Positions 3,432 to 27,723 of a stretch of 49,244 nt of DNA are shown piece after piece. The notes under the pieces were generated by a model. It saw only the letters and a list, made by a program, of their open reading frames with translations, searched no databases and had not been told where the DNA came from. Source of the stretch: a virus (taxonomy: Duplodnaviria; Heunggongvirae; Uroviricota; Caudoviricetes); the IMG/VR virus record IMGVR_UViG_2526164598_000014. The stretch is one strand, 5' to 3'. The position numbers and the translations under genes are program-made. Every line of letters begins with the position of its first letter. Position 1 is the stretch's first letter.

Positions 3432-3770
3432 TTATATCATTAATTTTGTTTCGTGCCAGCCTTTGGTCACCCAGCATTGTGAGTCACCATTACACGGGCA
3501 TGAATTAACAGGAACTCTCTCGCCGCACTTACCGCAACGTTTTCTGCTGATCGATTTTATACGCCAGCGCACACGTGCATCATCCTGGCGGCTCAGTAAC
3601 GCGATGTACTCACCAAACTCGTAAGGCGCATGCCTGAAGCGGCGCGTGGCTCAGTTACGATCCAGCATTTCAATTTCCTGAGCATCAAGTACAAGCTCCA
3701 GCTTACGCATACCGGATGATGCTTGCTTGGCTCTCTGATCGACTTTGCGCTCTGCTGATGATTTAGCCAT
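3432..3770 (-). pseudogene. Zinc-ribbon-like ORF interrupted by an in-frame TGA (codon 40 of 112)
   Basis: ATG at 3768-3770, 39 codons, in-frame TGA at 3651-3653, then 72 further codons in the same frame ending TAA 3432-3434; C-terminal part has CGKCG...CPCN...C cysteine pattern. Confidence 0.4.
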
Positions 3771-3966
3771 TCTGCTTTTCCTGCATTAGGAGAAAGACAA
3801 TCATGGCGGCGCGGATACTTCCGGTATCTTTTTACTCGATATTACCCTTCAATGGCACATACAAGAAGAGAGCCATCAACAGGAGTGAGTGAGGAATCGA
3901 CAACCAGCAACGCTTAATTATCTATAGTGTCGTATTTGCTTCATAAAATATGGCGAATAACACAAA

Positions 3967-3996
3967 GCCCGCAGCAGCTCATTGTGCGGGCTTTTC
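3967..3996. terminator. Hairpin GCCCGCA-N11-TGCGGGC followed by TTTTCTT; putative intrinsic terminator
   Basis: Stem-loop 3967-3991 plus T-run read directly from sequence; lies downstream of the 204-aa gene. Confidence 0.4.
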
Positions 3997-4063
3997 TTAT
4001 ACATACTTCCTAGAGATAATTCTATGGAGGCATTAAATTAATACTGTCATTGGTAATATCATA

Positions 4064-4678
4064 TTATCTAAAAGTCTTTCCACTTTTAACGTCTAGGTAT
4101 ATTCTGTTCGACAACGTCATTCCTCCGCAATATGTGAAATAGATGTTTTTCCCCTTATTGCTTGATGCCATCCACCCTCCGATTTCCTTAAAGTCGCTTT
4201 CCGTGCAGACCCCTTCGTTTATTAACTTCCTAGCTGCCGAAGAAAACTCTTTTTTGTATATACGGTAGTCATCAGATCCTTTGATTAAAGTATCATCTCC
4301 GCTCGCATTTTCAGCAGGATCTGATGGCCTTTCACTGCTAAGATCACTAAGTTTAACCCATTCTGAAAACTTGCCATTGACGATTCCGTTTTTTCTTGTG
4401 CAGGATTTATTACCTTCTTTAATATATTCGCTTTCCCCTCCCACACATGAGGCTGAATATGGCTCAGTTATACGAACCCATTCACCTTTTTTTTCTAGAA
4501 AATCTACGCCTTCCCTGAAAAATAGTTTCCCAGCCACTCCGCATTTACTTGAAGGGCAGGTATGTCTTTCCGTTCGATCAACAACAACCCAAAGTCTTGA
4601 TTCATTTTTTGCCATTGCCGATGGTATTTGAGATGAGACAATTAACGTAAGCCCTAAAATTAGTATTGATTTTTTCAT
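4064..4678 (-). CDS. Secreted hypothetical protein, 204 aa, Sec signal peptide, multiple Cys
   Basis: N-terminus MKKSILILGLTLIVSSQIPSAMA is a typical signal peptide; mature part has 8 cysteines; AT-rich context. Confidence 0.6.
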   Translation of the reverse strand: MKKSILILGLTLIVSSQIPSAMAKNESRLWVVVDRTERHTCPSSKCGVAGKLFFREGVDFLEKKGEWVRITEPYSASCVGGESEYIKEGNKSCTRKNGIVNGKFSEWVKLSDLSSERPSDPAENASGDDTLIKGSDDYRIYKKEFSSAARKLINEGVCTESDFKEIGGWMASSNKGKNIYFTYCGGMTLSNRIYLDVKSGKTFR

Positions 4679-4976
4679 TGTAATTTCCTTTTACTTTTTA
4701 CAAAGCGTTTAATCATGGCTGATTATCTTTAAGCGTAGTAACAGCCTTGTGCGAAACATGTTACCAAATCGCCATTTCAGTGTATCCGCAGTTAGGCTGC
4801 CACTTCAAGGATTCCTAATTACATGGTACGTAAGCGTAAAATCCCGTTGGTTGTCGGGTAATAACTCTGATCAAATCTCCCTTGTCTTTTGCTCTTACGT
4901 ATGCAGCTCTTGTGTATTCAACCCAGGCCTCCAGTTCAGCAATACGCTTACTTCCATCCGAGATAACACCTTCTAC

Positions 4977-5228
4977 TCACGCTGCTCGTTGAGTTTTGAT
5001 TTTTGCTGTCTCCAGCTCAACACGCAGTTTCCTCACCGTTAGCGCAATATCCTCGTTCTCCTGGTCGCGGCGTTTGATGTACTGCTGGTTTCTTTCCCGT
5101 TCATCCAGCAGTGTCAGCACAATCGATGGTGTTACCAGCTCATGGAAAAGGTCCGCGTCAAATCCCCAGTTGTCATGCATTGCCTGCTCTGCCGCTTCAC
5201 GCAGTGCCTGAGAGTGAATTACGCTCAC
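4977..5228 (-). CDS. Hypothetical early-left (ea region) protein, 83 aa
   Basis: ORF in leftward pL operon, 4-nt overlap with upstream TraR-like gene. Confidence 0.55.
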   Translation of the reverse strand: MSVIHSQALREAAEQAMHDNWGFDADLFHELVTPSIVLTLLDERERNQQYIKRRDQENEDIALTVRKLRVELETAKIKTQRAA

Positions 5229-18930: not shown

Positions 18931-19015
18931 AGTCAGAGATAACAATCAACTAATACTGTTTTGTTGATTTTTGCTTGTAATTGGCGTTCTGGTCTGATTT
19001 TTGTGGAGTAAGTTG

Positions 19016-19399
19016 ATGCGTGATATTCAGATGGTTCTTGAGCGTTGGGGAGCGTGGGCGGCTAATAATCATGAAGATGTGACCTGGTCGTCCATTGCCG
19101 CCGGTTTTAAGGGATTAATTACTTCAAAAGTAAAATCTCGCCCGCAATGTTGTGACGATGACGCGATGATTATTTGCGGGTGCATGGCCCGTCTGAAAAA
19201 GAACAACAGCGATTTGCACGATTTATTAGTAGATTATTATGTAGTCGGTATGACATTCATGTCACTGGCAGGTAAGCATTGCTGCTCTGATGGTTATATC
19301 GGGAAAAGGTTACAGAAGGCTGAGGGCATAATTGAAGGGATGTTAATGGCATTAGATATCCGGTTAGAGATGGATATCGTTGTTAATAACTCTAATTAA
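19016..19399 (+). CDS. Q: Q-type late antiterminator of the phage 82 / DLP12 QuuD type, 127 aa
   Basis: [34 protein letters not shown]... matches the phage-82-type Q as recalled; not lambda Q. Confidence 0.8.
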
Positions 19400-19587: not shown

Positions 19588-20670
19588 TTAGAACTGGTAA
19601 ACCATACCTACAGCAACGATATCATCGGTAGCAACGCCAGATGCTTTCGTGAAATCGCTCTTATCAATCAGGTTGATTTTGTAATCAACAAAAGTGGACA
19701 TATTTTTGTTGAAGTAATAGGTTGCACCTACATCAATATATTCAACCAGGTCCTGATCACCCCACGCACCCAAGTCTTTTCCTTTAGATTGCAGGTAAGC
19801 AACGGACGGACGCAGACCGAAGTCGAACTGATATTGTGCAACTACTTCGAAGTTTTGTGCTTTGTTGGCAATATGGTTATTACCAAAAACAGTCATGTTC
19901 TGGGTTTCAGAATAGGTGGTAGCCAGATAGATGTTGTTCGCATCATATTTCAGACCAGCTGCCCATACTTCAGCATTTTGACCAGATGCATTCAGGCTGT
20001 TGTTACCGTAGATAACCTGATTATTAGTGCGGTCAGATTTAGCATAGGTTGCACCTACACCGAATCCTTCATACTCATAAGTAGTGGAGAAACCGAAACC
20101 ATCACCATTAGCTTCAGTTACGTCAGTGCGGTCATTTTTACCCTGATACTGAGCAGCAAAGTTCAGACCATCAACCAGACCAAAGAAGTCGTTGTTACGA
20201 TAAGTTGCAACACCAGTGGTGCGACCAGTCATGAACACATCTGTTTGGGTCCAGGTATCGCCACCGAATTCTGGCAGAACGTCAGTCCACGCACCGATGT
20301 CGTATGCTACACCGTAGTTACGGCCGTAATCGATTGAGCCGTAGTCACCGAATTTCAGGCCTGCAAATGCAAGACGGGTTTTGTCTTTGGAGGAACCTTG
20401 AGATTCAGCGCGGTTGCCTTTGAATTCATATTCCCACTGACCGAAACCAGTCAGTTGATCGTTGATTTGGGTTTCACCTTTGAAGCCAAGACGGGCATAA
20501 GTAGTATCACCATCATCTGCATCATTAGAGGAGAAGTAGTGCTTAGCATTAACTTTCCCGTACAGATCCAGCTTGTTACTGTCTTTATTATAAATTTCAG
20601 CTGCCTGAGCAGACATCGCCATCAGTACTGATGCAGCTACAGCAGAAATTGCCACTGTTAATTTTTTCAT
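19588..20670 (-). CDS. nmpC: Phage-borne general porin of the OmpC/OmpF/NmpC family, 360 aa
   Basis: Signal peptide plus C-terminal ...VGMVYQF porin signature; sits between Q and holin on the opposite strand as nmpC does in DLP12. Confidence 0.85.
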
Positions 20671-21243: not shown

Positions 21244-21459
21244 ATGAAATCCATGGATAAGTTAACAACGGGTGTCGCCTATGGCACCTCAGCAGGTAGT
21301 GCCGGTTACTGGTTTTTACAGCTGCTCGATAAAGTCACGCCCTCACAGTGGGCAGCAATAGGTGTGCAGGGTAGCCTGGTATTTGGCCTGCTGACGTACC
21401 TGACAAACCTTTATTTCAAGATTAAAGAAGATAAGCGCAAGGCTGCGAGAGGTGAATAA
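21244..21459 (+). CDS. S: Class II pinholin of phage 21 S type, 71 aa, dual-start motif MKSM
   Basis: [58 protein letters not shown]... two TM segments, Met1 and Met4. Confidence 0.9.
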
Positions 21460-21796
21460 TGCCTCCATCATTACGAAAAGCCGTTGCTGCTGCTATTGGT
21501 GGCGGAGCAATTGCTATAGCATCAGTGTTAATCACTGGCCCAAGTGGTAACGATGGTCTGGAAGGTGTCAGCTACATACCATACAAAGATATTGTTGGTG
21601 TATGGACTGTATGTCACGGGCATACAGGAAAAGACATCATGCTCGGTAAAACGTATACCAAAGCAGAATGCAAAGCCCTCCTGAATAAAGACCTTGCCAC
21701 GGTCGCCAGACAAATTAACCCGTACATCAAAGTCGATATTGTCAACGCCAAGATTATTGGCCGTTTTTCGCCATTTTTAATGTCCGCTATTGGTCA

Positions 21797-23763
<1,967 letters not shown>

Positions 23764-24081
23764 GAGTGTTCCCTTTGTGGTGTAGGAACCTTAAGGAAAC
23801 AACATGTTGGGTGGAGCGGACAATCCAAATGGTGAATTACTGTCTTATATCATTGGCGCTGACAATATACCGGAAACAATGCGCGGCGCTCTTTACTCAT
23901 TCGTTTACAACGTGGGTGCTGGCAATTTCAGAACATCGACGCTTCTTCGCAAAATAAACCAGGGCGATATCAAAGGCGCATGTGATCAGCTACGTCGCTG
24001 GACATATGCTGGCGGTAAGCAATGGAAAGGTCTCATGACTCGTCGTGAGATTGAGCGTGAAATCTGTTTGTGGGGTCAGCA

Positions 24082-24540
24082 ATGAACAGAGTAACCGCGA
24101 TTATCTCCGCTCTGGTTATCTGCATCATCGTCGGCCTGTCATGGGCTGTTAATCATTACCGTGATAACGCCATTACCTACAAAGCCCAGCGCGACAAAAA
24201 TGCCAGAGAACTGAAGCTGGCGAACGTGGCAATTACTGACATGCAGATGCGTCAGCGTGATGTTGCTGCGCTCGATGCAAGATACACAAAGGAGCTTGCT
24301 GATGCTAACGCGACTATCGAAAGTCTCCGTGCTGATGTTTCTGCTGGGCGTAAGCGCCTGCAAGTCGCCGCCACCTGTGCAAAGTCAACGACCGGAGCCA
24401 GCGGCATGGGCGATGGAGAAAGCCCAGGACTTACAGCAGATGCTGAACTCAATTATTACCGTCTCCGAAGTGGAATCGACAAGATAACCGCGCAGGTTAA
24501 CTACCTGCAGGAATACATCAGGACGCAATGCCTGAAATAA
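24082..24540 (+). CDS. Rz: Rz inner-membrane spanin
   Basis: N-terminal TM segment, coiled-coil body; ATG at 24082 overlaps endolysin stop. Confidence 0.85.
24302..24487 (+). CDS. Rz1: Rz1 outer-membrane lipoprotein spanin, embedded in +1 frame of Rz
   Basis: ATG at 24302 preceded by AAGGAG; lipoprotein signal [20 protein letters not shown] followed by proline-rich segment. Confidence 0.65.
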
Positions 24541-24741
24541 TTTTTTTGCAAATCACAAAGTCCATTTAATGAGCCTCGCGATGCGGGGCTTTTTGCAATA
24601 AATGCGTACCGCAACGCATGTTTTTTACACCGAACCTGCCCCTTTGGAATGGGCCTTTGAGGATACCAGTTAGTGCTGGCGAGCCTCGGTGGGCTGGTTT
24701 CCTGTGCGGCAAAGGTTCATTTCAAAGAGTAGGTACACGCT

Positions 24742-25239
24742 ATGAAATCATTAACCCTCTTCAATCAACCAATTCGTATCGGTGAAGATGGCATGATCTG
24801 CCTCACTGATATGTGGAAAGCCAGTGGTAAAAGTGAATCTGAATCGCCTTACCACTACCTGCGAAACAAGCAGACCAAAGAGTTCTTAGCCGAGCTGGAG
24901 AAAAACCACGAATCTGTGGTTTTTACTGAGCGCGGTGTACACGGTGGAACATATGGCGGGAAGTTTGTTGCTTACGATTATGCGGCTTGGTTAAACCCCG
25001 GGTTCAAGTACGCGGCCTATAAAGTCCTCGATGACTACTTCACCGGAGAACTTCAGCATCGCAACAGCTTAAGTGCGCAGCTCAACATGAAATGTCATGA
25101 GTTTGACCAGAAGAAAGACATGGCGAGCTTCTGCGGACAAGGGCTGGCAGCATGGCGCTATACGAAGCCAGTGTTGGTCGCTGAGATTAACTCCCTGGCT
25201 AACCAGCTGCAGATTACGATCCCCGGGCTTCCGGGATGA
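24742..25239 (+). CDS. Hypothetical protein, 165 aa, possible KilA-N/Bro-N-like N-terminal domain
   Basis: N-terminus FNQPIRIGEDGMICLTDMWKASGK resembles the KilA-N fold signature; weak call. Confidence 0.45.
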   Translation: MKSLTLFNQPIRIGEDGMICLTDMWKASGKSESESPYHYLRNKQTKEFLAELEKNHESVVFTERGVHGGTYGGKFVAYDYAAWLNPGFKYAAYKVLDDYFTGELQHRNSLSAQLNMKCHEFDQKKDMASFCGQGLAAWRYTKPVLVAEINSLANQLQITIPGLPG

Positions 25240-25499
25240 GTGATCGTGTTATTGAATGCGCCTCCAGAGCGGGGCGCGACTTCTCAGAGTTCATGAAAGG
25301 CGAGAAGGGCATGATGGAAGCATTGGCCTCGGTGGATGAGTTTGGCGAGCAGCTGCGCCTCAACGGCTGTGTCAATCATCACTTTGTTAGCTACATGATG
25401 CGGAACTCGATCATGCAGGCATTCATAGACATGGCAAAAGCCGAGAGGAAAGAAGAGCGCCGGCGTAAGCGAGCGGAAGCAAAAGCAAAAGTGAAGTAG
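25236..25499 (+). CDS. Hypothetical protein, 87 aa, lysine/arginine-rich C-terminus
   Basis: ORF overlaps upstream gene stop by 4 nt. Confidence 0.45.
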   Translation: MSDRVIECASRAGRDFSEFMKGEKGMMEALASVDEFGEQLRLNGCVNHHFVSYMMRNSIMQAFIDMAKAERKEERRRKRAEAKAKVK

Positions 25500-26087
25500 C
25501 CATTACAAAGCCCATTTACGGGTGGGCTTGATAATGAAACCGGAATTTATTCTGGGCCACCAGTTAACGGCAGTACCACGAAACAACCCAAGCCAGTAAG
25601 TGGGGAAATAACACCGGCAGCCACTGAAAGATGAACCTCCTGCCTTATGGCAAAAAAGATTCTTTGTGGTGGCGGACTGATGGAAAGACATCCTAATTTC
25701 AGCCAAACATTGAAGGAGTTGTTATGTCAGCAGAAGGTTTCAATAACCCATCAAAATTCCGGGATGAGTGGGATAGCAGCGTAAAGAGTAAGTGATGCCA
25801 TCACAAAAGCCATTCCCTACAGAGTGGCTTTGATAATGGCTTATACCCTACACGGGATAACTTAACTGATATCCCTTTTAAAGGATAAAGGTATTCAAGC
25901 CTGACACATCATGCGCTGTATCGTCGCCGTATTCCCGTATTAACAGAGACCGTAGCCCGACGGGGAACTCCTTCTGCGCGAGTGTGCGGGAATAATCAAA
26001 AACGATGCACACCGGGGTTACCGGGTACACATATTTCATCATGCCAGCGAGTCCGGTTCTGGCACGGAAGAAACCGGACGTTATGAT

Positions 26088-26498
26088 TTAGTGCGGAAAT
26101 ATTTGTGTAGAGTTCTGAATGTTCTCAGTAAAGAGTAATGAATTATCAAAGGTATAGTAATACCTTTTGTTTTCGTGGATATTTGTAATCCATCTGAAAA
26201 CCCCTGCTGTAGCAAGATTTTTCCTGTATTCGTAAAATGATAACTCTCCTGATTTGAATCCTTTTAAGGTGGCTTCTATAAGGCATTTATTTTTTGAAAA
26301 TCTTACATTTACAACCTTACCCTGTCCTTTTATTAAAACCGTATTATCGTTTTCAAGAACAAGATGAATATTCTCTGTGGCTAAATAGTAAATGTAATGT
26401 GAGACATTGTGACGTTTTAGTTCAGAATAAAACCAGTGATAGTTTAAATTATTTCGCACTTTATCGAATATTTGTTTAAAAATGGCAACCTGAGCCAT
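26088..26498 (-). CDS. Hypothetical protein, 136 aa from ATG 26496-26498 (DLP12 YbcV-like by size and position)
   Basis: GGAAGG RBS 9 nt upstream of the internal ATG (MAQVAIF...); very AT-rich. Confidence 0.5.
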
Positions 26499-26555
26499 TG
26501 TAGTACCTTCCATGTGATATGAGGGGGCGTAGTCTGCACGATTATCTAAATTGCT

Positions 26556-26789
26556 TCAATCTGGTCTAACCTGTTTTCTGAGCAATTCAGTAATGTCACT
26601 CTTTTCTTTGTTTGCTTCAGGCGAAACTCTTTTTTCTGAGCACAGTCTCCGGCGGCAGGCTTCAATGACCCAGGCTGAGAAATTCCCGGACCCTTTTTGA
26701 ACAAGAGCGATGTTAATTTGTTCAATCATTTGGTTAGGAAAGCGGATGTTGCGGGTTGTTGTTCTGCGGGTTCTGTTCTTCGTTGACAT
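26556..26789 (-). CDS. Small basic protein, 77 aa, possible ribbon-helix-helix DNA binder
   Basis: Arg-rich N-terminus followed by IRFPNQMIEQINIALVQKGSGNFSAWVIEACRRRL; 42 bp upstream of the 136-aa gene on the same strand. Confidence 0.45.
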   Translation of the reverse strand: MSTKNRTRRTTTRNIRFPNQMIEQINIALVQKGSGNFSAWVIEACRRRLCSEKRVSPEANKEKSDITELLRKQVRPD

Positions 26790-26988
26790 GAGGTTGCCCT
26801 GTATTCAGTGTCGCTGATTTGTATTGTCTGAAGTTGTTTTTACGTTAAGTTGATGCAGATCAATTAATACGATACCTGCGTCATAATTGATTATTTGACG
26901 TGGTTTGATGGCGTAGATGCACGTTGTGACATGTAGATGATAATTATTATCATTTTGCGGGTCCTTTCCGGCGATCCGACAGGTTACG

Positions 26989-27000
26989 GGGCGGCGACCT
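26989..27000. other. cos: cosN: 12-nt lambda cohesive end GGGCGGCGACCT
   Basis: Exact lambda left-end sequence GGGCGGCGACCTCGCGGGTTTTCGCTATTTATGAAAATTTTCCGG follows; cosB/Nu1 sites continue to 27177. Confidence 0.9.
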
Positions 27001-27177
27001 CGCGGGTTTTCGCTATTTATGAAAATTTTCCGGTTTAAGGCGTTTCCGTTCTTCTTCGTCATAACTTAATGTTTTTATTTAAAATACCCTCTGAAAAGAA
27101 AGGAAACGACAGGTGCTGAAAGCGAGCTTTTTGGCCTCTGTCGTTTCCTTTCTCTGTTTTTGTCCGTGGAATGAACA

Positions 27178-27697
27178 ATGGAAGTCAACAAAAAGCAGCT
27201 GGCTGACATTTTCGGTGCGAGTATCCGTACCATTCAGAACTGGCAGGAACAGGGAATGCCCGTTCTGCGAGGCGGTGGCAAGGGTAATGAGGTGCTTTAT
27301 GACTCTGCCGCCGTCATAAAATGGTATGCCGAAAGGGATGCTGAAATTGAGAACGAAAAGCTGCGCCGGGAAGTTGAAGAACTGCGGCAGGCCAGCGAGA
27401 CAGATCTCCAGCCAGGGACTATTGAGTACGAACGCCATCGACTTACGCGTGCGCAGGCCGACGCACAGGAGCTGAAAAATGCCAGAGACTCCGCTGAAGT
27501 GGTGGAAACCGCATTCTGTACTTTCGTGCTGTCGCGGATCGCAGGTGAAATTGCCAGTATTCTCGACGGGATCCCCCTGTCGGTGCAGCGGCGTTTTCCG
27601 GAACTGGAAAACCGACATGTTGATTTCCTGAAACGGGATATCATCAAAGCCATGAACAAAGCAGCCGCGCTGGATGAACTGATACCGGGGTTGCTGA

Positions 27698-27723
<26 letters not shown>
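27178..27723 (+). CDS. nu1: Terminase small subunit Nu1
   Basis: 181-aa ORF matching lambda Nu1 as recalled. Confidence 0.96.

Follow-up and report, generated by a model that had tools for sequence, protein, structure and literature searches.

In phage lambda and in the lambdoid prophage DLP12, the region between the Rz spanin gene and cos carries two minus-strand genes that encode proteins of the DUF1398 and DUF3950 families (gene order bor, lambdap78, lambdap79, ylcI-like ORF, cos in lambda and borD-ybcV-ybcW-ylcI in DLP12). The two genes are separated in both genomes by the oppositely oriented ybcW/p79, and the protein encoded by ylcI has 64 aa. The ylcI-like ORF of lambda, at 48139-48303, is unannotated and the lambda reference annotation thus lacks it. 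In the cryptic prophage Qin of Escherichia coli K-12, by comparison, ynfO (77 aa) and ydfO (136 aa; b4533-b1549) are separated by 57 nt and adjoin a Nu1-type gene, nohA, while gnsB, cold-shock genes and other small genes, with no KilA-N gene among them, are found between ydfO and Rz.

A different arrangement is found in the Stx-converting phage 2851 (NC_049943), where genes for a KilA-N/ORF11CD3 protein and for an 87-aa-like protein follow directly after Rz, and an oppositely oriented DUF3950 gene then follows these. This phage lacks a DUF1398 gene and has an HK97-type HNH-terS-terL packaging module. The ORF11CD3 domain is also found in the Rha/Ant/Bro proteins of lambdoid and P22-like phages, which are modular and combine it, at the C-terminus, with an N-terminal DNA-binding domain (Phage_pRha or Bro-N); the domain network of Bro-type phage proteins has been described (PMC10111431). 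A Rha-like gene is located directly 3’ of the Rz genes in the P22-like phage Sf101, and in VT2-Sakai ant is located between R and Rz, within the lysis cassette.

The locus analyzed here is part of a 49,244-nt stretch of DNA (the window) from a virus of the Caudoviricetes (IMG/VR record IMGVR_UViG_2526164598_000014). Its left edge is Rz (24070..24540, plus strand; Pfam Phage_lysis, 137 bits), with which the lysis cassette ends, and its right edge is the cosN cohesive end GGGCGGCGACCT (26989..27000), recognized by its sequence; the gene for the small terminase subunit Nu1 (27178..27723, plus strand; Pfam Phage_Nu1, 336 bits) lies beyond. Four ORFs that an earlier note had listed between these edges were confirmed, at 24742-25239 and 25236-25499 on the plus strand and at 26556-26789 and 26088-26498 on the minus strand. 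An 85-aa ORF at 26805-27062 on the minus strand was rejected as spurious; it spans cosN and is absent from the RefSeq annotation. This interval is very probably the usual accessory-gene (“moron”) slot between Rz and cos of a lambda-like prophage, occupied by two independent convergent modules. Module A (plus strand, 24742-25499) would consist of a KilA-N/ORF11CD3 gene and an overlapping gene for an 87-aa protein, and module B (minus strand, 26789-26088) would be a ynfO-ydfO bicistron as in Qin. Morons are recognized by their presence or absence among similar phages and by atypical composition, and here both gene content and the distance from Rz to the DUF1398 gene were found to vary among relatives, with a GC content of 31% in the DUF1398 gene against 51% in the window.

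The first gene of module A, on the late-operon strand, encodes a 165-aa protein for which a KilA-N-like N-terminus had been proposed. Pfam searches bore this out, with a match to KilA-N (PF04383) at residues 9-101 (57.6 bits, gathering score 23.8), and also identified ORF11CD3 (PF10549) over the full length of the profile at residues 109-161 (50.5 bits, cut-off 25). This protein thus has the architecture of the Rha/Ant/Bro proteins, with KilA-N instead of Phage_pRha or Bro-N as its N-terminal domain. It was assigned to PHROG 129/10441, its C-terminus also matches the Rha-like PHROG 518, and it shares 97% identity with the kilA product from phage 2851. By family, it may be a DNA-binding, antirepressor-like protein of the “Bro network”; a search of the literature on ORF11CD3 gave nothing specific. 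The KilA-N gene and the second gene share 4 nt (ATGA, with the stop of the former and the start of the latter), and the 87-aa product of the second gene is basic (pI 9.3), as the earlier note had said. The 87-aa protein belongs to PHROG 875 and is 99% identical to its counterpart in phage 2851, while no relatives were found in Pfam, NCBIfam, PADLOC or the PDB. Among 25 IMG/VR loci that carry the KilA-N gene, 21 also carry the 87-aa gene. Since module A follows Rz on the late strand, it is most likely transcribed late, under Q antitermination, and would act as a regulator or an antirepressor-like factor.

Stable hairpins are predicted between the two convergent modules. One stem-loop is located 3’ of the 87-aa gene (25501..25536; fold -17 kcal/mol, z = -3.2), and a second copy, together with a stretch of about 60 nt, was found at 25797..25885 (fold z = -5.6 on the plus and -5.5 on the minus strand). 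In an alignment of lambda-like, P22-like (Sf101) and Stx (2851) phages, this stretch of about 60 nt is nearly invariant, and 25797..25885 is probably a terminator or a boundary between the convergent modules. A scan for promoter and terminator consensus sequences found sites no more often than in shuffled sequence, and the boundaries of the transcription units are therefore ones that we infer. An Rfam scan of 24400-27300 at E ≤ 1 returned eukaryotic miRNA and snoRNA matches at chance level alone. The adjoining segment 3’ of the DUF1398 gene (25912..26087) is common to lambda (46868-47041) and many Stx phages. A possible fifth gene, a 54-aa ORF at 25878-26042 on the minus strand that is annotated in phage PhiR49_1, was rejected; its counterpart in phage 2851 and in L090 is interrupted by stops or has no start, and the segment around this ORF is therefore conserved as DNA and not as an ORF.

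The upstream gene of module B (26556..26789, minus strand) encodes a 77-aa protein that matches DUF3950 (PF13132; 72.8 bits, Pfam cut-off 25) and the NCBIfam model YlcI_YnfO_N (NF041551; 35.2, cut-off 30) and is 97% identical to YnfO of Qin and 81% identical to YlcI. It is Arg-rich, as had been observed before (14.3% R, pI 10.9), and the suggestion that it is a ribbon-helix-helix protein was weakly supported by structure prediction, profile matches and distant members of the family. Its AF2 model has an extended N-terminal arm, a helix at residues 19-32, a turn and a helix at residues 37-54, and its sequence fits the pattern of Arc/MetJ/CopG proteins, i.e., a basic arm, a predicted strand (NIRFP), a helix, a G-x-x-N/S turn and a second helix. 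Moreover, the DUF3950 family profile has its best two PDB matches among ribbon-helix-helix proteins, namely CdbA (E = 0.009) and a member of the CopG family (E = 0.026), and two distant DUF3950 members match Pfam RHH_6; the Pfam RHH models gave no significant match to the 77-aa protein itself. We conclude that this protein probably binds DNA as a ribbon-helix-helix protein and that its C-terminal tail is variable, the tail of YlcI from lambda and DLP12 being unlike that of the 77-aa protein. Distant DUF3950 genes lead unrelated operons, one with a gene for an HD-domain protein and one a TonB-receptor/CopC cluster, which fits a generic small regulator, and the 77-aa protein most likely regulates its own transcription unit. 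A 13-nt imperfect inverted repeat, ATCAATTAATACG-N7-CGTCATAATTGAT (26859..26891), is located 70-100 bp upstream of the ynfO-like start and is a candidate operator.

The second gene of module B (26088..26498, minus strand) encodes a 136-aa protein that matches DUF1398 (PF07166) with 146.9 bits (Pfam cut-off 22) and is 74-76% identical to YdfO, YbcV and lambda p78 (lambdap78). The extreme AT-richness reported for this region was confirmed for the gene, with 31.4% GC against 51.3% for the window. By contrast, the gap of 42 bp given for the two minus-strand genes needs correction, as it is the distance to a mechanically called 141-aa ORF that starts at ATG 26513; counted from ATG 26498, where the 136-aa protein starts, the distance is 57 nt. 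ATG 26498 is preceded by a GGAAGG motif and ATG 26513 by nothing comparable, and the RefSeq annotation likewise starts at the 136-aa position. The NMR structure of YdfO (PDB 2HH8) matches the 136-aa protein at E = 1e-66 and is the single PDB match of the DUF1398 profile; its PDB entry assigns no function to YdfO, and no sequence relative of DUF1398 with known activity was found. With a pLDDT of 48, the AF2 model of DUF1398 is too poor for fold-based inference.

Expression data are available for relatives of this gene. The mRNA of K-12 ydfO, which is transcribed from Qin, increased about 100-fold with ionic liquid (PMC4077768), and the ybcV transcript was reduced 10-fold in a pdhR mutant (PMC7660256). 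The AT-rich DUF1398 gene is regarded as a passenger and, by analogy with K-12 ydfO, is probably kept silent in the lysogen and induced by particular stresses. A published protective effect of YdfO overexpression in oxidative stress (PMC4077768) was not retained; the source cited for it (PMC3105296) describes YfdO of the prophage CPS-53 and never ydfO. The only functional claim for YdfO that was found in the literature, resistance to oxidative stress, thus traces to a confusion of YdfO with YfdO.

Comparison with lambda and DLP12 showed that bor is located there at the site of the KilA-N and 87-aa genes of the window, whereas window positions 25912-26572, with the DUF1398 gene (lambdap78), align to lambda 46868-47527 (82.5% identity) and positions 26627-26988 align to the last 362 nt of lambda (48141-48502; 95% identity), which contain the ylcI-like ORF and extend to cos. 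Between these alignments, where ybcW/p79 is found in lambda and DLP12, lambda has 613 bp and the window 54 bp. The proposal that all four genes replace lambda bor therefore holds for 24541-25911 with module A and is wrong for the two minus-strand genes, because lambda has homologues of both. The closer parallel for module B is Qin, which has the identical layout of 77 aa, 57 nt and 136 aa next to a Nu1-type gene, with a different DUF1398 allele (74% identity). Adjacent ynfO and ydfO genes were found in 2677 of 5426 complete E. coli genomes, in agreement with the suggestion that the pair is conserved lambdoid cargo, of the ynfO/ydfO type more exactly than of the ylcI/ybcV type. The KilA-N and 87-aa genes were found together in 389 of these genomes and the whole four-gene block in 99, as well as in the record of phage PhiR49_1. 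Of 80 IMG/VR loci that share this DUF1398 allele, 55 have no KilA-N gene; across these loci the DUF1398 gene lies between 314 and 2884 bp from Rz, its spacing to ynfO does not change, and that between Nu1 and ynfO hardly varies.

The location of these genes in a highly variable slot, where relatives carry lysogenic-conversion genes such as lambda bor, could indicate that one or both modules provide anti-phage defence or superinfection exclusion, and the antisense orientation of module B relative to late transcription would suit a gene expressed in the lysogen. We consider this quite unlikely. In PADLOC, the KilA-N protein has a weak match to the candidate model PDC-S22 (about 30 residues, E = 1e-8), but this short match (residues 60-90) lies within the KilA-N match, and none of the four proteins qualifies as a known defence system under PADLOC-DB 2.0, the 87-aa, 77-aa and 136-aa proteins having no PADLOC match. 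Moreover, enzymatic or sensor domains are absent, and literature searches found no defence phenotype for ydfO, ybcV, ynfO or ylcI and nothing specific on the slot between Rz and cos as a defence hotspot.

The 77-aa/136-aa pair had also been described as a regulator plus effector operon, of which the regulator part gained some weak support and the coupling lost ground, since each gene is found alone and ybcW separates them in lambda and DLP12. A stronger form of this idea, which we regard as very unlikely, is a type II toxin-antitoxin-like pair in which the 77-aa ribbon-helix-helix antitoxin neutralizes a DUF1398 toxin through its C-terminal tail and represses the operon. Gene order, sizes and the short gap are typical of such systems, as is an N-terminal ribbon-helix-helix domain with a variable C-terminal tail, and the tail found with an adjacent DUF1398 gene, EANKEKSDITELLRKQVRPD, differs from those of YlcI and the Stx phages. 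Functional coupling in this combination of alleles would likewise fit the constant spacing of about 57-60 nt that ynfO and DUF1398 keep in half of the E. coli genomes. The genes of type II systems form obligate pairs, however, and here DUF3950 was found in 155 and DUF1398 in 43 phage records, DUF3950 without DUF1398 in phage 2851 and DUF1398 without DUF3950 in L089-L092. Because each is common without the other, DUF3950 is not an obligate partner of DUF1398, and the two therefore probably do not form a toxin-antitoxin system; unlike in Arc/MetJ/CopG regulators and antitoxins, the partner gene of DUF3950 varies or is absent. In addition, DUF1398 has no match to toxin or defence models (Pfam, NCBIfam, PADLOC), the literature checked reports no toxicity for YdfO or YbcV, and YdfO was made in quantity for structure 2HH8, which may argue against strong toxicity.

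A role of DUF3950 in DNA packaging, as a protein that acts on packaging or late expression in phages and satellites from a binding site near cos or the terminase genes, is highly improbable, even though the DUF3950 gene adjoins and is divergent from the small-terminase region in both lambda-type (Nu1) and HK97-type (HNH-terS) phages. A satellite-like element inside a prophage has two DUF3950 genes, one of them fused to a Terminase_2 N-terminal domain, and YlcI/YnfO is among the genes of capsid-forming PICIs (PMC13612085). On the other hand, the distant DUF3950 genes in the HD-domain and TonB receptor/CopC operons, which are not of phage type, have no terminase nearby, an HNH gene separates DUF3950 (66% identical to the 77-aa protein) from terS in phage 2851, and DUF3950 is oriented antisense to the late operon. 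Virtually no credence can be given to DUF1398 as a virion protein, for which database labels speak (PHROG 413 “head protein”; lambdap78 “head protein” in RefSeq; “putative envelope protein” in older records). These labels contradict one another and no experiment in their favour was found, and the gene lies apart from the block of head genes and runs opposite to the late operon. In addition, tblastn found DUF1398 in just 43 of 50,697 phage records, a collection in which lambdoid phages greatly exceed this number and a 2.6-kb Rz-to-cos query matched 366.

A wider reading, which we regard as unlikely, is that DUF3950 proteins are small ribbon-helix-helix regulators located beside packaging genes in phages and satellites and that ynfO-DUF1398 is a cassette for lysogenic conversion or exclusion that is switched by stress and whose effector has a new fold. 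The preferred reading remains two independent modules in the moron slot. The earlier note had named clear assignment to known families as evidence against novelty, and such assignments were obtained throughout (KilA-N plus ORF11CD3, PHROG 875, DUF3950 and DUF1398), so the four genes are not new and are already covered by Pfam, NCBIfam and PHROGs. As a discovery, the locus carries little weight, its genes being present in about half of complete E. coli genomes and in K-12, with homologues in lambda. The four genes are very common, already known passengers of E. coli lambdoid prophages, a finding that is real but ordinary, and ynfO-ydfO is among the commonest prophage gene pairs of E. coli.

Between Rz (24070-24540, plus strand) and cosN (26989-27000), the prophage carries four small ORFs, and the layout and composition described in the earlier note were borne out by ORF coordinates, GC content, pI and Arg content. 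A plus-strand 165-aa ORF (24742-25239) overlaps at ATGA with an 87-aa ORF (25236-25499, plus strand; pI 9.3), and beyond a 588-bp spacer (25500-26087) lie, on the minus strand, a 136-aa ORF (26088-26498; 31.4% GC versus 51.3% for the whole window) and a 77-aa ORF (26556-26789; pI 10.9, 14.3% Arg), with Nu1 (27178-27723, plus strand) to the right of cosN. The 42 bp previously quoted between the 77-aa and 136-aa genes corresponds to a mechanically called 141-aa ORF; counted from the 136-aa start, which has a GGAAGG motif upstream and is also chosen by RefSeq, the gap is 57 nt. A further ORF of 85 aa (26805-27062, minus strand), whose C-terminal half matches PHROG 9395, is probably spurious, as it lacks RefSeq annotation and crosses cosN, so that virion DNA would carry it in two pieces. 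About 35 bp left of cosN is a perfect 8-1-8 palindrome (26937-26953), ATGATAAT-t-ATTATCAT, overlapped by a promoter-like plus-strand site (26926-26953, 10/12 matches).

Homology searches assigned all four proteins. The 165-aa protein contains KilA-N (57.6 bits) and ORF11CD3 (50.5 bits) domains, the C-terminal one additionally matching Rha-like PHROG 518, and the 87-aa protein is covered end to end by PHROG 875, with no relative in Pfam, NCBIfam or PDB searches. The 77-aa protein belongs to the DUF3950 (YlcI-YnfO) family, with 97% identity to K-12 Qin YnfO and 81% to DLP12 YlcI, and the 136-aa protein is a DUF1398 protein, with 74-76% identity to YdfO, to YbcV and to the last 136 residues of lambdap78. 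Qin shows the identical ynfO(77)-57 nt-ydfO(136) layout beside its Nu1-type gene, which, together with the family assignments, upholds the more cautious suggestion that the 77-aa/136-aa pair is conserved prophage cargo. All four genes are already known, and nothing in the slot is new.

In lambda (NC_001416), the order is Rz, bor (minus), DUF1398 (minus), ybcW/p79 (plus), a ylcI-like ORF (minus) and cos. The last ORF (48139-48303, minus strand), unannotated in lambda but annotated in some other lambda-like records, was found by tblastn about 200 bp left of cos and shares 94.5% identity with residues 1-55 of the 77-aa protein. Window positions 25912-26572 align to lambda 46868-47527 (82.5%) and 26627-26988 to lambda 48141-48502 (95%). 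Since lambda itself has DUF1398 and a ylcI-like ORF, the claim that these genes replace bor holds for the KilA-N and 87-aa genes, which with a mosaic spacer occupy the bor position, but not for the other two. Where lambda has the 613-bp ybcW segment the window has 54 bp, so that DUF3950 lies next to DUF1398 and ends in a different C-terminal tail. The whole 24540-27180 block is present in the PhiR49_1 phage record (host ECOR13; 98.6% identity).

Elsewhere in the prophage, an IS21-family element (istB, 21797-22594, and istA, 22591-23763, both minus strand; imperfect terminal inverted repeats at 21767-21788 and 23815-23836) interrupts the endolysin gene (21459-24085), splitting it into an N-terminal part from 21459 and a C-terminal Phage_lysozyme remnant (23804-24085); the prophage is probably lysis-defective. 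An OmpC/NmpC-type porin gene (19588-20670, minus strand) between the Q antiterminator (19001-19399) and holin (21244-21459) genes is a further lysogenic-conversion gene conserved in this type of prophage, with DLP12 (nmpC) and PhiR49_1 (OmpD) carrying a porin gene at the equivalent position.

Among 5426 complete E. coli genomes, 4915 have some part of 24540-27180 and 99 the full block; the adjacent ynfO-DUF1398 pair is common (2677 genomes), and the KilA-N/87-aa module occurs in 389. In 80 IMG/VR loci sharing the window's DUF1398 allele, KilA-N is absent from 55 and the Rz-to-DUF1398 distance varies between 314 and 2884 bp; the spacing of ynfO and DUF1398 is constant (60/61 nt as measured there), and Nu1 and ynfO are 388-389 nt apart in 58 of 66 loci. 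Stx phage 2851 carries counterparts of KilA-N (97%) and of the 87-aa protein (99%) as well as a DUF3950 gene; DUF1398 is missing from it, and its packaging module is of the HK97-type HNH-terS-terL kind. The slot is best read as two independent accessory modules. The plus-strand module, on the grounds of its strand and position and of the ATGA overlap, would be expressed through Q-dependent late transcription and would produce a Bro-network DNA-binding protein and, from the overlapping start, a small basic partner. The spacer is a patchwork of short segments common to 591 phage records, without an Rfam match. Two similar stable hairpins (25501-25536, z = -3.2; 25797-25840, z = -5.6) flank a ~290-bp segment, part of which also occurs in the P22-like phage Sf101, and a ~60-nt stretch following the second hairpin is nearly invariant among lambda-like, P22-like (Sf101) and Stx (2851) phages; hairpins and stretch are taken to be terminators or a module boundary separating the two convergent units. 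The remaining ~100 bp of the inter-hairpin segment, missing from both Sf101 and 2851, contain a 23-codon ORF (25724-25795, MSAEGFNNPSKFRDEWDSSVKSK) that is preceded, at a distance of 5 nt, by an AAGGAG motif and has no relationship to K-12 YnfR or YnfS. A 54-aa ORF in the spacer region was rejected as a gene because it is not conserved as an ORF.

A toxin-antitoxin function of the 77-aa/136-aa pair has a low probability despite their adjacency, as the co-inheritance that defines such pairs fails: each family is frequent without the other (DUF3950 in 155 records of the phage collection, DUF1398 in 43), and four loci (L089-L092) carry DUF1398 alleles beside DUF1441-type terminase genes without any DUF3950. 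A defence role is similarly improbable; no toxin, defence or enzyme model in Pfam, PADLOC or NCBIfam matched DUF1398. A packaging-linked role is also given little probability. Database labels for DUF1398 contradict one another ("head protein" versus "envelope protein"), and a virion role is unlikely since the gene is antisense to the late operon.

The NMR structure of YdfO (2HH8) was the sole PDB match in a DUF1398 profile search, and the AF2 model was too poor to use. ydfO mRNA has been reported to increase ~100-fold under ionic liquid (PMC4077768), and PdhR occupies the ybcV/ybcW intergenic region, with the ybcV transcript down 10-fold in a pdhR mutant (PMC7660256). Oxidative-stress resistance has also been ascribed to YdfO overexpression (PMC4077768); the source cited there (PMC3105296) reports YfdO of CPS-53 and never mentions ydfO, and this looks like a gene-name mix-up now in the literature.

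A ribbon-helix-helix fold for the 77-aa protein, raised as a possibility in the earlier note, is rated likely, short of proof. The best two PDB matches of a 28-relative profile are ribbon-helix-helix proteins (CdbA, E = 0.009; CopG-family, E = 0.026), two DUF3950 relatives match Pfam RHH_6, and the AF2 model (pLDDT 68) begins with an extended basic N-arm, followed by helix 19-32, a G-S-G-N turn and a second helix at 37-54. Composition, orientation, this likeness and the K-12 expression data suggest that the minus-strand module could be a lysogen-side, AT-rich unit, probably H-NS-silenced, in which the small predicted ribbon-helix-helix protein would control its own transcript, with DUF1398 as a downstream passenger.

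With 189 clusters at the 50% identity level, DUF3950 is a small family, and distant relatives conserve the core (T/K)-x-I-R-F-P-x-x-L-x-x-x-I ... N-F-S-A-W-V-x-E-A-C-R. Two distant homologues lie outside phage late regions: one (3501-5190 region of locus L100) overlaps the beginning of the gene for a 503-aa HD-domain protein, which has an AEP-like gene, SymE and RhuM as neighbours, and the other (3501-3725 of locus L102) follows a TonB-dependent receptor within a DUF2946/CopC cluster. Members are also present in satellites (PMC13612085). In E. coli CP027459.1 (3715563-3723925; L095, 1-8363), a satellite-like element with an integrase, a D5-type primase and DUF4222, resembling helper-embedded PICIs (PMC10111431), adjoins the truncated terS of a prophage with the same KilA-N/87-aa-like/DUF3950/HNH order. 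Two DUF3950 genes lie in this element, and in one of them DUF3950 is joined to a Terminase_2 N-terminal domain (120 aa). The small family size, the placement of distant members before unrelated genes and the occurrence in satellites fit a predicted role of DUF3950 as a small regulator of a generic kind whose partners can be exchanged.
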